A stretch of 27,280 nt of DNA from IMG/VR virus record IMGVR_UViG_2534681604_000001; one strand, 5' to 3'. The notes under the pieces were generated by a model, which worked only from the letters and a program-made list of their open reading frames with translations, was not told the origin of the DNA and searched no databases. The position numbers were made by a program, and so were the translations under genes. The first letter of the stretch is position 1; each line of letters begins with the position of its first letter. Positions 1,120 to 5,410 of the stretch are shown here, one piece after another. The DNA comes from a virus. Lineage: Duplodnaviria; Heunggongvirae; Uroviricota; Caudoviricetes.

Positions 1120-1292
1120 GACGACAGCGACGAAGTATCACCGACATCATCTGCGAAAACTGCAAATACCTTCCAACGAAACGCTCCAGAAATAAACGCA
1201 AACCAATCCCAAAAGAATCTGACGTAAAAACCTTCAATTACACGGCTCACCTGTGGGATATCCGGTGGCTAAGACATCGTGCGAGGAAATGA
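1116..1292 (+). CDS. ninE: NinE
   Basis: [58 protein letters not shown] recognised as lambda NinE. ATG at 1116 overlaps the methylase stop as ATGA. Confidence 0.85.
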
Positions 1293-1294
1293 CA

Positions 1295-1672
1295 ATGGAT
1301 TATTCACAGTTAAGTGATTTTGAAATTAACGTGGCGGTATTCGAAGCCATTCATAACGGATCACCGGATTACAAAGAAGGTGAGAATGGCGATATGGTGT
1401 TTGTCTCATTTGAGGGAGACATTGTAAACGGAGACGCAGTTGAAGTAGAAGTTGAGCGCGGATCCTTTAACCCATGCGCAAACCCAGCAGACGCATGGCC
1501 GATTATCACTGAAAACAACATCAGCATAATTTTAGACAATCCCTCAATGCCGTGCGCCACAGACAACGCAAGGGACTTGTTTGATGATGCCTTACCGAAT
1601 GTTGGTGTCGCATATGACAATCCACTCCGTGCCGCCATGATTGTCTTTCTCATGATGCGGAGAATCCAATAA
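1295..1672 (+). CDS. Acidic hypothetical protein, possibly NinX-like (DUF2591)
   Basis: ORF between ninE and ninF, the position of ninX in the P22 nin region. ATG at 1295 has gagga 7 nt upstream; in-frame ATG at 1289 is the alternative. Family assignment is from memory and uncertain. Confidence 0.5.
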   Translation: MDYSQLSDFEINVAVFEAIHNGSPDYKEGENGDMVFVSFEGDIVNGDAVEVEVERGSFNPCANPADAWPIITENNISIILDNPSMPCATDNARDLFDDALPNVGVAYDNPLRAAMIVFLMMRRIQ

Positions 1673-1851
1673 TGCTTAGCCCATCCCAATCCCTTCAATA
1701 CCAGAAAGAAAGCGTCGAGCGAGCTTTAACGTGCGCTAACTGCGGTCAGAAGCTGCATGTGCTGGAAGTTCACGTGTGTGAGCACTGCTGCGCAGAACTG
1801 ATGAGCGATCCGAATAGCTCAATGTACGAGGAAGAAGACGATGGTGATTAG
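1672..1851 (+). CDS. ninF: NinF
   Basis: 59-aa ORF MLSPSQSLQYQKESVERALTCANCGQKLHVLEVHVCEHCCAELMSDPNSSMYEEEDDGD matching lambda NinF (Cys-rich). Below the 60-aa cutoff of the ORF track; found by direct translation. Confidence 0.85.
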   Translation: MLSPSQSLQYQKESVERALTCANCGQKLHVLEVHVCEHCCAELMSDPNSSMYEEEDDGD

Positions 1852-2233
1852 CCGATATGGACAAATAACGTTTAAACATTTTCAAGACAATCCAACATGG
1901 GCTGCTGCGGCTGGATATGACTTTAATTATTTTGATTGTCTGTCAGTAGCATGTATTGCAACTACCAATGTTGCTAACAACATAATCGATGAATTCTTGG
2001 ATTTTCCAGAATATCAGGTCAGAGAGTTGCCTGCATTTTTTGTGAAAGTATCTGTTGCTACAGCTCTGTTATTTATTTTGTTATTCGCATATCCATTGCT
2101 TGCCGTATTTGTTTATGTGAGATGCAAGCACTCACAAAAGGAATACAGCGGAGAGCATACCGATATTACCAGCACAAATATGCGAGTGTGGTTGAGGAGA
2201 TGCCAAGAGAATTGGGGGAGACGTCATGGCTAA
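1841..2233 (+). CDS. Hypothetical single-pass membrane protein (AT-rich moron)
   Basis: 130-aa ORF with one hydrophobic helix (FFVKVSVATALLFILLFAYPLLAVFVYV) followed by basic residues. Markedly AT-richer than flanking nin genes. gagg lies about 9 nt upstream of ATG 1841. Not recognised as any lambda gene. Confidence 0.45.
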   Translation: MVISRYGQITFKHFQDNPTWAAAAGYDFNYFDCLSVACIATTNVANNIIDEFLDFPEYQVRELPAFFVKVSVATALLFILLFAYPLLAVFVYVRCKHSQKEYSGEHTDITSTNMRVWLRRCQENWGRRHG

Positions 2234-2516
2234 CCTACGCAAAGAAGCTCGCGGCAGAGAATGCCAGGTACGTATTTACGGCGTATGCAATGGCAACCCT
2301 GAAACTACAGTTCTGGCACATTACCGGATGGCTGGAATTTGCGGAACGGGAATGAAGCCTGACGACCTGATCGGCGCATGGGCTTGTAGCGCGTGTCACG
2401 ATGAAATCGACCGACGCACCCATAATCTCGACAACAAAGACGCCAGACTTTACCACCTCGAAGGCGTGATCAGGACGCAGGCGATACTGCTGAAGGAGGG
2501 GAAGATTAAGTCATGA
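2226..2516 (+). CDS. ybcO: YbcO-like protein (DUF1364, putative nuclease)
   Basis: 96-aa protein MANLRKEARGRECQVRIYGVCNGNPETTVLAH… with Cys/His cluster, resembling DLP12 YbcO. Strong SD ggggga upstream of ATG 2226. Immediately precedes rusA as in DLP12. Confidence 0.7.
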   Translation: MANLRKEARGRECQVRIYGVCNGNPETTVLAHYRMAGICGTGMKPDDLIGAWACSACHDEIDRRTHNLDNKDARLYHLEGVIRTQAILLKEGKIKS

Positions 2517-2908
2517 AAACCTACCGAATAAAATTGCCGTGGCCTCCTTCAAACAACCGATATTGGCGACACTCAAGAGGGATCCACTACATCAGCGACT
2601 GGGGTAAGAGATACCAAGAAGAAGTAATCGAATTAATCCAGCAACAACAGCTAGACATCAAAATCACACCTCGCATCAGAATAACCATCCACGCAGCACC
2701 TCCCGATAACCGCAAACGAGATTTGGACAATCTGCCAAAAGCCGTTTTTGACGCACTCACCAGTGCGGGCTTCTGGCTGGATGACGGTCAGATAGACGAT
2801 ATGCGCGTCATTCGCTATCAGGCGATTAAAGGTGGAATGCTTTTGTTGGTTGTGACTGAAACATGCGGCAGTTTGCCAATGATTACAGAGCTACTGGAGG
2901 CCGCATGA
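2513..2908 (+). CDS. rusA: RusA Holliday junction resolvase
   Basis: MKTYRIKLPWPPSNNRYWRH…RDLDNLPKAVFDALTSAGFWLDDGQIDDMRV… matches the RusA family. ATG overlaps the ybcO stop as ATGA. Confidence 0.9.
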   Translation: MKTYRIKLPWPPSNNRYWRHSRGIHYISDWGKRYQEEVIELIQQQQLDIKITPRIRITIHAAPPDNRKRDLDNLPKAVFDALTSAGFWLDDGQIDDMRVIRYQAIKGGMLLLVVTETCGSLPMITELLEAA

Positions 2909-3111
2909 CGTTCTCAGTAAAAACCATTCCAGACATGCTCGTTGAAGCATACGGAAACCAGACAGAAGTAGCACGCAGACTGAAATGTAGTCGCGGCACG
3001 GTCAGAAAATACGTTGATGATAAAGACGGGAAAATGCACGCCATCGTCAACGACGTTCTTATGGTTCATCGCGGATGGAGTGAAAGAGATGCGCTATTAC
3101 GAAAGAATTGA
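2905..3111 (+). CDS. ninH: NinH (small DNA-binding protein)
   Basis: [39 protein letters not shown]… recognised as lambda NinH. ATG at 2905 overlaps the rusA stop as ATGA. Confidence 0.85.
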
Positions 3112-3760
3112 TGGCAGCAAATACCGAAATATTTGGGTAGTTGGCGATCTGCACGGATGCTACACGAACCTGATGAAAAAACTGGAGACGATAGGATTCG
3201 ACACCAAAAAAGACCTGCTTATCTCGGTTGGCGATTTGGTCGATCGCGGTGCAGAGAACGTCGAATGCCTGGAATTAATCACATTCCCCTGGTTCAGAGC
3301 TGTACGTGGAAACCATGAGCAAATGATGATTGATGGCTTATCAGAGCGCGGAAACGTCAATCACTGGATGCTTAATGGCGGTGGCTGGTTCTTTAATCTC
3401 GATTACGACAAAGAAATTCTGGCTAAAGCTCTTGCCCATAAAGCAGATGAACTTCCGTTAATCATCGAACTGGTGAGTAAAGGTAAAAAATATGTCATCT
3501 GCCACGCCGATTATCCTTGTGACGAATACGAGTTTGGAAAGCCAGTTGATCATCAGCAGGTAATCTGGAACCGCGAACGAATCAGCAACTCACAAGACGG
3601 GATCGTGAAAGAAATCAAAGGAGCGGACACGTTCATCTTTGGTCATACGCCAGCAGTGAAACCACTCAAGTTTGCCAACCAGATGTATATCGATACCGGC
3701 GCAGTGTTCTGCGGAAACCTCACATTGATTCAGGTACAGGGAGAAGGCGCATGGGCATAA
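3089..3760 (+). CDS. ninI: NinI serine/threonine protein phosphatase (lambda PPase type)
   Basis: [29 protein letters not shown]…GDLVDRG…GNHE… carries calcineurin-like metallophosphatase motifs and is recognised as lambda NinI. ATG at 3089 is preceded by gaaagag. Confidence 0.9.
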
Positions 3761-4269
3761 GAGAACTAAACCTCACCAAAGAGCAGCACGAGTGGCTGAA
3801 TGGCTGGCTTGAACTGTGGGGCGCATGGGTTTATTCAGGTCGTCTGGAAAAGCGCATGAGCAGCGTAATAGCGAAGTTCATGGAGAGCGTAGAGCCGGGA
3901 AGAGTTATGACAAGGCCAATGTGCAATGATGATGATGGAATGTTGATTTCTCAGGTCGTCGATTCCGTCATGTACATTGACAAAAAAGCCTTTGGCATCC
4001 TCCTCAGCTACTACGCTCATGGTTCATCTAAGCGAGCAATTGCATCCTACTATCACGCGACTGCAAAGCCACGCAAGATGTGTGGACGTGGTGGCGAGGG
4101 ATGGAGAAAACCTTCACTGGCAACCTGTAGAAACGAAATTGACGACATCCTGAAAGCGTCATTATTTGTTTTATACCAGCCAATGCAAAATGCTTTCAAA
4201 ATGCGTAAACGTGTTGAGAAAGTTAAGCATATTGCTGTTAAAAGCCTTGACATGCAATTAGCCATTTAG
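3751..4269 (+). CDS. Late-gene antiterminator Q, non-lambda type (QuuD / Phage_antitermQ-like)
   Basis: WLELWGAWV and CNDDDG motifs resemble the DLP12 QuuD-type antiterminator. Sits in the canonical Q position between ninI and the lysis genes. Confidence 0.7.
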
Positions 4270-4276
4270 CCATAAT
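4247..4276 (+). promoter_or_regulatory. Candidate sigma70 late promoter (PR'-like)
   Basis: -35 ttgaca (4247-4252), 18-nt spacer, -10 cataat (4271-4276), straddling the Q stop codon. Function not verifiable from sequence. Confidence 0.35.
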
Positions 4277-4286
4277 TAGCAGGTAA

Positions 4287-4328
4287 GCTGCCGTTAGTGA
4301 CTCTTAAGTTGCAACGGTGGCTTTTTTT
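4287..4328 (+). terminator. Intrinsic terminator after Q (tR'-like)
   Basis: 9-bp stem gctgccgtt/aacggtggc (including 2 G-U pairs), then seven T's at 4322-4328. Confidence 0.55.
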
Positions 4329-4332
4329 ATTT

Positions 4333-4407
4333 GGGTCAGTCGTATAAAGGTCATTACGGAAGGCTGTTAACCTTCTTATCGTGGTTCGAGTCCACGCTGT
4401 CCCGCCA
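4333..4407 (+). tRNA. tRNA-Asn-like (anticodon GUU), acceptor stem has one U-U mismatch
   Basis: Hand-folded cloverleaf: acceptor gggtcag/ctgtccc with U4-U69 mismatch; anticodon stem gaagg/ccttc, loop ctGTTaa; T arm cgtgg-ttcgagt-ccacg; discriminator G; encoded CCA. Anticodon loop and T loop match E. coli tRNA-Asn. Confidence 0.55.
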
Positions 4408-4412
4408 AACAT

Positions 4413-4488
4413 GCTGGTTTAGCTCCAATGGTAGAGCAGTCGCCTTGTAAGCGAATGGGTAGCGGTTCAAGTCCGTTAACCAGCACCA
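4413..4488 (+). tRNA. tRNA-Thr (anticodon UGU)
   Basis: Hand-folded 76-nt cloverleaf: acceptor gctggtt/aaccagc; D arm gctc-caatggta-gagc; anticodon loop ctTGTaa; T arm agcgg-ttcaagt-ccgtt; discriminator A; encoded CCA. Confidence 0.7.
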
Positions 4489-4576
4489 TAACTGAGCCGT
4501 AGCCACTGGCTATCCTGAATTCATCAGTGATAGTTATGCTGCGGCCTTCTACACATGACCTTCGTGAAAGCGGGTG

Positions 4577-4609
4577 GAAGGAGGTCGCGCTAACAACCTC
4601 CTCCGTTTT
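4577..4609 (+). terminator. Stem-loop with short U-tract (weak terminator or processing structure)
   Basis: 7-bp stem aggaggt/acctcct around a 10-nt loop, followed by gtttt. The 5' arm is an SD-like aaggaggt with no start codon downstream. Confidence 0.3.
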
Positions 4610-4709
4610 GCCCGTGCATATCGGTCACGAACAAATCTGATTACTAAACACAGTAGCCTGGATTTGTTCTATCAGTAATCGACCTTATTCCTAATTAAAT
4701 AGAGCAAAT

Positions 4710-4725
4710 CCCCTCAATGAAGGGG
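4710..4725 (+). promoter_or_regulatory. Hairpin sequestering the holin ribosome-binding region (sdi-like)
   Basis: cccct-caatga-agggg hairpin ends 6 nt before the first holin ATG (4732) and contains the purine-rich aagggg that would serve as SD. Confidence 0.4.
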
Positions 4726-4731
4726 TAGAGC

Positions 4732-4935
4732 ATGTACCGTATGGACAAAATCAGAGAATGGTTCAGTTACAGCTTCGGAGGACTGACTGCGATGGGTGGC
4801 ATTCTCTCCCTGAATGACTGGGCTGTCATCATTGGTATTCTTTGTACTGTCGGCACATTTGGCATCAACTGGTACTACAAGCGCAAAGAGCGCGAGGACA
4901 GATTGAATGGCAATGTCACCGGCACTACGAAATAG
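4732..4935 (+). CDS. Class II holin / pinholin (phage 21 S-type) with dual start
   Basis: Small protein with two TM segments, starts MYRMDKI… with ATGs at 4732 and 4741. Immediately precedes a SAR endolysin. Resembles S21 (MKSMDK…) dual-start architecture. Confidence 0.75.
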
Positions 4936-5410
4936 CGTAATAGCGGCGATAAGTGGCGGGGCTATTGCTATAGCATCTGTGTTAATCACTGGGCCAAGTG
5001 GTAACGATGGTCTGGAAGGTGTCAGCTACATACCATACAAAGATATTGTTGGTGTATGGACTGTATGTCACGGACACACCGGAAAAGACATCATGCTCGG
5101 TAAAACGTATACCGAAGCAGAATGCAAAGCCCTCCTGAATAAAGACCTTGCCACGGTCGCCAGACAAATTAACCCGTACATCAAAGTCGATATACCGGAA
5201 ACAACGCGCGGCGCTCTTTACTCGTTCGTCTACAACGTGGGGGCTGGCAATTTCAGAACATCGACGCTTCTTCGCAAAATAAACCAGGGCGATATCAAGG
5301 GCGCATGTGACCAGCTACGTCGCTGGGCATACGCTGGCGGTAAGCAATGGAAAGGCCTGATGACTCGTCGTGAGATTGAGCGTGAGGTCTGTTTGTGGGG
5401 GCAACAATGA
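4907..5410 (+). CDS. R: SAR endolysin (phage 21 R-type, T4 E-like lysozyme, GH24)
   Basis: N-terminal Gly/Ala-rich signal-anchor-release domain ([21 protein letters not shown]), followed by [23 protein letters not shown] catalytic region. Recognised as phage 21 R-like. gagga 8 nt upstream of ATG 4907. Confidence 0.9.

Follow-up and report, generated by a model that had tools for sequence, protein, structure and literature searches.

Gene content of the locus

We analyzed a 27,280-nucleotide stretch of phage DNA (here, referred to as the window) with respect to a 130-codon open reading frame (ORF) between ninF and ybcO (Table 1). Beyond rusA, the next named gene downstream of ybcO, come a NinH-like gene, the NinI phosphatase gene, the Q gene, two tRNA genes, and a holin-lysozyme pair. 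The same Asn/Thr tRNA pair is also present in a related prophage (L002). Among the genes of this nin stretch, the 130-aa protein is the only membrane protein. Its gene lies outside the lysis cassette; the holin and lysozyme genes are 2.5 kb downstream, past Q and the two tRNAs.

A preliminary description of this DNA had singled out the ORF as AT-richer than its neighbors, and its composition agrees: the GC content is 39.4% (GC3, 35.1%), against approximately 46 to 53% in the surrounding genes (ninX, 45.7%; rusA, 47.7%; ninF, 50.6%; ybcO, 52.9%) and 53.8% in the whole window. The overlap with the ninF stop codon (11 nt) and the usable Shine-Dalgarno sequence (GAGGA, 8 nt upstream of the ATG) that it had reported are likewise present. 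The 3' end of ninF is the source of the ribosome-binding site and the start codon at this position.

A second ORF of 77 aa, read in another frame (window 2122-2355, + strand), spans the junction between the 130-codon ORF and ybcO, which is a mosaic boundary. This 77-aa ORF is almost certainly not a gene, and its recurrence in 12 loci is merely an artifact of the neighbor analysis.

Table 1. Coordinates of features at the ninF-ybcO locus and in the downstream lysis region of the window
Feature	Position	Strand	Basis and remarks
NinX gene	1253-1672		Pfam
ninF, upstream gene	1672..1851	+	Pfam NinF, E=1.9e-12
Shine-Dalgarno-like GAGGA	1828..1832	+	Within ninF coding sequence, 8 nt 5' of the ATG of the ORF; read from sequence
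PHROG 2638 coding sequence, 130 aa	1841..2233, stop codon included	+	ATG start; ORF list and sequence
Left junction, 11-nt ninF/ORF overlap	1841..1851	+	ATG within last ninF codons and stop (ATGGTGATTAG)
Near-invariant N-terminal motif T-F-K-H-F-x-D-x-P-x-W-A-A-A-A-G-Y-D-F-N-x-x-D-C-x-S	Codons 10-35, 1868..1945	+	Alignments
Single hydrophobic (transmembrane) helix	Codons 64-93, 2030..2119	+	Hydropathy; conserved Pro at residue 85
Basic tail (R-C-K..., net +4)	Codons 94-130, 2120..2230	+	Ends in helix 108-129
Right junction ATGGCTAA	2226..2233	+	ORF stop and ybcO start overlap
ybcO (DUF1364, putative nuclease), downstream gene	2226..2516	+	Pfam YbcO, E=1.8e-44
RusA gene	2513-2908		Pfam
Two tRNA genes, Asn-GTT and Thr-TGT	4333-4488		Between Q antiterminator gene and lysis cassette
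Holin-like 67-aa ORF	4732-4935		Part of lysis cassette
Lysozyme gene	4907-5410		Part of lysis cassette

Conservation and selection

At this composition, 130 open codons are expected by chance with a probability of approximately 2e-4 per reading frame start. ORF length by itself is weak evidence for a gene; conservation and purifying selection are decisive. The preliminary description had made its interpretation depend on the ORF being conserved and on its lacking clear homology to a characterized Nin protein. The ORF DNA is present in 37 of 5,426 complete E. coli genomes at 97 to 99.5% identity, including EPEC E2348/69 and several ST131 strains. Klebsiella phage phiKp_30, which is P22-like, carries a copy as well, as do many IMG/VR contigs. 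Strain CFSAN064035 encodes a protein identical to that of the window, and the E2348/69 copy is 95% identical. This conservation means that the condition set in the preliminary description does not refute its interpretation. The identical protein has been deposited from E. coli, always as "hypothetical protein," and its 90% cluster takes in Salmonella copies. Three RefSeq entries of that name (WP_000237097.1, WP_000237094.1, and WP_000237093.1) belong with PHROG 2638.

Comparison of a Buttiauxella-prophage copy with a metagenomic copy gave a dS of 0.68 and a dN of 0.051, for a dN/dS ratio of 0.075. Between near-identical E. coli copies the ratio is 0.4 to 0.9, a range calculated from only 2 to 11 substitutions, and the substitutions in this E. 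coli clade fall mostly in the C-terminal tail. Given the conservation and the purifying selection at dN/dS 0.075, we regard the reality of the gene as settled. The contrary reading, in which the ORF is a chance frame or a decaying remnant in AT-rich imported DNA, could appeal to the higher E. coli ratios and to truncated copies in a few genomes. It is hardly credible, and conservation effectively refutes it: the ratio is low at greater divergence, approximately 75 clusters, some with identity as low as 25%, keep the frame at full length, the AlphaFold model has high confidence, and the ORF begins and ends in precise coupling with its neighbors. Overall, we are highly confident that the ORF is a real, horizontally exchanged phage accessory gene belonging to PHROG 2638, and that it is carried as a promoterless cassette in a cargo slot at the 3' end of ninF, within the delayed-early pR operon of a lambdoid prophage.

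Family membership and distribution

The 130-aa protein matches phrog_2638 with an E value of 5e-54 (182.8 bits), residues 9 to 127 of 130 aligning with profile positions 2 to 120 of 120, and all 29 of the 29 aligned relatives match the same profile. PHROG 2638 is a family that has already been cataloged, without an assigned function or structure. Relatives at 25 to 56% identity were recovered as 12 clusters by single-sequence search, 25 representatives by exhaustive phmmer search of 1.84 billion representatives, and approximately 75 clusters by profile search. All of these relatives are 105 to 134 aa long, and neither a Pfam domain, nor a name, nor a differing architecture was found among them by word-indexed, exhaustive phmmer, or profile searches.

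Annotation searches gave phrog_2638 as the only match. In Pfam, the best hit of the 130-aa protein was Kinocilin at E=0.15, below threshold, while its neighbors matched NinX, NinF, YbcO, and RusA cleanly. NCBIfam returned no match, PADLOC-DB returned 0 defense families at E<=10, and a sequence-profile search of the PDB found nothing below E=0.18. Pfam and PHROG searches matched the protein to none of the NinB, D, E, F, G, H, X, Y, Z, YbcO, and RusA families, which is in keeping with the preliminary statement that it is not any characterized lambda, P22, or DLP12 nin protein. The same searches run over the 29 aligned members found no Nin family and no annotated PHROG; the other matches were sub-threshold and of transmembrane type, including weak matches to a LapA-type transmembrane domain in four members. 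Sequence and structure searches revealed no similarity to the superinfection-exclusion families Imm, Sp, SieA/SieB, gp15-like, and Cor, nor to defense, anti-defense, holin, or toxin families. Structure searches with the confident AlphaFold model found no specific structural neighbor and no DNA-binding fold. Literature searches by accession, by PHROG identifier, by nin-region terms, and in an accessory-gene screen preprint yielded nothing on the protein.

All homologs come from Enterobacterales phages or prophages, of the lambdoid, P22-like, P1-like, Yersinia, and Proteus phage groups. Their GC content ranges from 30% (a Proteus phage) to 50%, roughly tracking that of their hosts and surrounding DNA; therefore, the low GC content in the window marks import from a lower-GC phage pool rather than a trait of the family. 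Outside the lambdoid group, the family occurs in early or accessory clusters of other phages. In the P1-like phage-plasmids SJ46 and RCS47 (L010 and L011, approximately positions 3498-3872), the homolog adjoins ead/Ea22, eaa, DUF551, and ASCH genes; further carriers are Yersinia phage P840, Proteus Gorganvirus phages, and a Morganella phage. Members of the P1-like subfamily are 124 to 128 aa long and approximately 35% identical to the window protein. This subfamily is widespread, with 895 member sequences in one 90% cluster, and it is found in P1-like phage-plasmids from E. coli, Shigella, Salmonella (including Typhi), and other Escherichia species, in a lambdoid-type early accessory block. 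Across 90 loci, we found no conserved partner gene: the neighbors differ among the lambdoid, P1-like, Yersinia, and Proteus contexts. Because no neighboring gene is common to these contexts, the protein is taken to act alone.

A cargo slot at the 3' end of ninF

Whenever the gene occurs in a lambdoid or P22-like prophage, ninF precedes it and ybcO or ninG comes next. The preliminary description had located it where lambda carries ninG, a placement that does not stand: the gene is inserted upstream of ninG/ybcO, and in 12 related loci ninG is found directly downstream of it, so it is an addition to ninG and not a substitute for it.

Comparison with related prophages, which the preliminary description had proposed as a way to define the insertion, gave exact boundaries, from the ATG in the 3' end of ninF to ATGGCTAA. 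The window was compared with L013, L014, and L015 at the left junction and, at the right junction, also with L001, L002, L005, and L008. On the left, similarity to prophages with other cargo ends just past the common ATG (1841-1843). Prophages whose ninF and ybcO are 98 to 99% identical to those of the window diverge immediately after the common GAAGAAGACGATG and rejoin at ATGGCTAA, an 8-mer that in identical form begins ninG in other carriers. The start region of every alternative cargo gene in the slot is GAGGAAGAAGACGATG. These alternatives are a 70-aa ORF (L013, 1670-1882), an 89-aa ORF (L014, 1670-1939), and a 241-aa Rha/KilAC antirepressor (L015, 1670-2395). Within a spread sample of the 1,816 matching records, every ninF-ybcO record carried cargo and none had an empty junction, while a direct ninF-ninG junction, as in lambda, was common.

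A consensus scan of positions 1200-2900 found three promoter-like sites, compared to 2.9 +/- 2.0 in shuffled sequences, none of them placed to drive the ORF, and zero terminators; a weak or atypical promoter could escape such a scan. A repeat scan of the AT-rich segment revealed no flanking repeats, terminal repeats, or transposon ends, and Rfam returned no RNA family there. Given that promoters and terminators do not exceed background and that repeats, transposon ends, and Rfam matches are absent from these scans, the cassette is promoterless, translationally coupled, and exchanged by recombination at gene boundaries. The slot itself is defined by sequence: its left side is a common ribosome-binding site with the ATG and its right side is ATGGCTAA, and it could be mined systematically for accessory genes.

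Several carriers show rearrangements at or near this position. Downstream of the homolog in phiKp_30 (L003, 3386-3450), the first 29 nt of ybcO are fused to a ninF tail (AGGAAGACGATG), and the fusion continues with the first codons of the KilAC-antirepressor cargo of L015 (MNELING...). Next come approximately 170 nt of different sequence, a distinct Rha/KilAC gene, and finally an intact ybcO. This recombination scar looks like a relic of serial cassette exchange. The E. coli E2348/69 prophage (L004) has two copies of ninF, from a duplication, that are separated by part of an HNH-endonuclease gene (2299-3011); further downstream, a truncated antiterminator gene is followed by lpxR (lipid A deacylase) on the opposite strand (4217-5391). 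In E. coli NZ_CM142769.1 and NZ_CP107178.1, the gene is truncated, matching no more than query positions 98-393 and 152-393, and adjoins ybcO or ninG, and one of these two genomes has four matching places. The truncated copies suggest that recombination has occurred inside the gene in some prophages.

Expression

The preliminary description had placed the ORF for expression from the early-right transcript, as does its position within the operon. In a P22-like lysogen transcriptome, ninE, ninF, and ninH were not detectably expressed during lysogeny (PMC12922286). From the silence of the nin genes in that lysogen, we infer that the 130-aa protein would be made only after induction or infection.

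Protein anatomy and predicted topology

The protein divides into four parts, three of which are given in Table 1. Conservation of the N-terminal motif was scored from alignments A1, A2, and A3, with percentages taken over 68 sequences: P18, G25, and Y26 are invariant, and T10, H13, F14, D16, A21, D32, and C33 are kept in at least 90%. The motif is followed by a variable helix and then by an (F)P(D)xE(V)RELP turn. As the preliminary description had noted, a single transmembrane helix is followed by a basic stretch: residues 64 to 93 are hydrophobic, with the Kyte-Doolittle 19-residue mean peaking at 2.61 over residues 75 to 93, and the tail has a net charge of +4. This hydrophobic segment is present in all aligned family members and is helical in the AlphaFold model. 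Past an R/K-C-K junction, the basic tail has conserved residues Y102, N113, W117, and C120, the last three spaced as one helix face. Many relatives have their first residue where the window protein has residue 9; since the window lacks a start codon at that site, its start is the ATG at 1841.

Two candidate assignments did not hold. The "FDC(L)S" at a helix N terminus, together with a C-terminal transmembrane segment, had pointed to a permuted NlpC/P60- or LRAT-like Cys-His enzyme, which does not fit a domain that is far too small and has no beta-sheet. A His/Cys3 zinc site formed by H13, C33, C95, and C120 was also considered; the cysteines are not kept together across the family.

Charge is distributed asymmetrically about the hydrophobic segment. 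The window protein has a net charge of -5 before the segment and +4 after it. Across 79 family sequences, the 15-aa C-terminal flank has 3.84 K/R and 0.6 D/E, and the 15-aa N-terminal flank has 1.54 K/R and 2.6 D/E; the net charge of the family is -2.9 in the N-terminal part and +6.1 in the C-terminal part. This bias is found in 78 of 79 members, and by the positive-inside rule it predicts a periplasmic N-terminal domain and a cytoplasmic tail.

An AlphaFold2 model built with 29 sequences (pLDDT 85.6, pTM 0.69) comprises a short hairpin (residues 2-9) and helices 11-16, 18-23, 30-53, 60-101, and 108-129, with the hydrophobic segment forming part of the long helix 60-101. Modeled alone, the N-terminal domain has a pLDDT of 72, below that of the full-length protein. 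We used covariation (APC-corrected mutual information) to ask whether the N-terminal domain contacts the tail or the transmembrane helix. This analysis gave weak pairs between helix 30-53 and residues 65-76, a result that is underpowered, with approximately 63 effective sequences dominated by subfamily signal, and confounded by phylogeny. Considering the lower pLDDT of the isolated domain together with these weak pairs, part of the nominally soluble domain may be packed against the hydrophobic helix, and the topology may be less simple than the N-out/C-in picture. It is uncommon for a 63-aa N-terminal domain to cross the membrane without a signal peptide.

Proposed function and alternatives

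We tentatively propose that PHROG 2638 proteins are early lytic envelope effectors. The gene would be transcribed along with the nin genes in lytic growth or on induction and at no other time, with its translation coupled to that of ninF, and the product would span the inner membrane once. Its acidic N-terminal domain of approximately 60 aa, bearing the HF-D-P-WAAAAGYDFN-DC motif, would lie on the periplasmic side, and its basic tail of approximately 35 aa on the cytoplasmic side. Through the conserved motif, the protein would bind some envelope or inner-membrane component that is conserved among Enterobacterales, and it would work alone, without a partner gene. The likeliest outcome would be that the envelope of the infected cell is guarded against secondary infection (compare T4 Imm/Sp and P22 SieA), or some other takeover of the envelope that favors the phage. 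Within this mechanism, we infer the time of expression, the topology, the existence of a host target, and the phenotype.

We favor an envelope effector because the protein is early and single-pass, its acidic domain is conserved and predicted to be periplasmic, it has no partner gene, and its family is found only in Enterobacterales phages, a restriction that fits a lineage-specific host target. The interchangeable accessory cargo of the slot also counts for this mechanism, and the lack of similarity to exclusion, defense, anti-defense, holin, or toxin families in our searches counts against it, as do the uncommon transfer of an N-terminal domain without a signal peptide and the hints of a less simple topology. 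Temperate phages usually express their exclusion genes from the prophage. The 130-aa gene apparently is not so expressed, which counts against an exclusion role. The preliminary description had pointed to exclusion, abortive infection, or anti-defense; PADLOC-DB, the PHROG annotations, and the structure searches lend these conjectural roles no support, nor do our results refute them. Taken as a whole, with exclusion as the best-precedented outcome by analogy, the mechanism is a possible reading that we hold with well under even confidence.

A host-takeover or anti-defense factor is somewhat unlikely. Under this alternative, the N-terminal motif, on either side of the membrane, would inhibit a host inner-membrane protein (a divisome component, FtsH/HflKC, or a transporter, for example) or a membrane-bound defense effector, aiding lytic growth instead of excluding other phages. 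An invariant motif in an otherwise fast-diverging protein (25 to 55% identity) typically marks a contact surface for a conserved host protein; the gene has an early-operon position and no signals of lysogenic expression, the family occurs in many unrelated phage backbones, including the Proteus Gorganvirus phages, and neighboring cargo in the slot is regulatory (the Rha/KilAC antirepressor). However, no known anti-defense or host-inhibitor family was matched, the PADLOC, Pfam, and PHROG annotations being silent, and the data point to no nameable target. We consider it improbable that the protein is a membrane-damaging effector, that is, a small toxic protein serving abortive infection or lysis timing through the membrane potential. 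Its small size, its one long (30-aa) hydrophobic helix, its basic amphipathic C-terminal helix, and the LapA-type matches in four members would suit that role, but the gene is outside the lysis cassette at 4732-5410, its homologs in other phages likewise occupy early regions, we found no conserved antitoxin-like partner, and the strongly conserved 35-residue N-terminal motif is unexpected for a simple membrane disruptor.

Less probable still is a membrane tether comparable to phi29 p16.7, whose basic cytoplasmic tail would hold DNA, or a nin protein of recombination or replication, at the membrane by binding to it. The gene is indeed embedded among recombination and nuclease genes (NinB, Dam, YbcO, and RusA/NinG), and the tail is rich in R, K, and W, with a net charge of +4 to +6. 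Against this, these neighbors are not conserved beyond the lambdoid group, no DNA-binding fold was detected in the structure searches, and the most conserved part of the protein is the acidic N-terminal domain rather than the tail, where the E. coli clade substitutions cluster.

The 130-aa protein is an ordinary conserved phage accessory protein, one of thousands, and nothing indicates an unusual mechanism. Because its motif is unusually conserved, its model is confident and without structural relatives, and it is carried by several phage lineages, it is a somewhat better candidate for experiments than most. A more far-reaching version of the envelope-effector proposal, in our judgment unlikely, would make PHROG 2638 the first of a new class of N-out single-pass phage envelope effectors whose motif docks on a conserved periplasmic or inner-membrane machine of Enterobacterales. 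This machine could be, for example, a DNA-entry route or an envelope-biogenesis complex used by many phages, which, if true, would explain why the gene is carried by lambdoid, P22-like, P1-like, and Proteus/Yersinia phages. If the target were found, the protein would become a further means by which phages manipulate the enterobacterial envelope or exclude competitors, and the finding would annotate the family in prophages of ST131, EPEC E2348/69, and Salmonella and in P1-like phage-plasmids.

Comparison with known systems

T4 Imm and Sp, P22 SieA, and HK97 gp15 are small phage inner-membrane proteins that are non-essential and act alone at the envelope. The likeness of the 130-aa protein to them is one of functional analogy only: it has no sequence or fold similarity to any of them, and it combines an acidic, predicted N-out domain with one transmembrane helix and a basic tail. 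In T4, imm and sp belong to the early lytic genes, as the 130-aa gene would. [quoted passage not shown]

With the nin genes of lambda and P22 (ninA to ninI, ninX/Y/Z, and NinG/Rap), the gene has in common its operon, its overlapping starts and stops, and a dispensable accessory character. Its product, however, is unrelated to any Nin Pfam family, and the gene adjoins ninG/ybcO while replacing neither.

A moron, in the definition of Juhala and Hendrix, is a gene that has been inserted together with a promoter and a terminator of its own and deviates in base composition. The preliminary description had classed the ORF among small membrane morons, and this holds in part: like a moron, the ORF is low in GC content, precisely inserted between conserved genes, and present or absent among near-identical prophages. 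Unlike a moron, it has no flanking promoter or terminator by consensus scan, overlaps both neighbors, and is translationally coupled, and it is better termed a cassette in a mosaic exchange slot.
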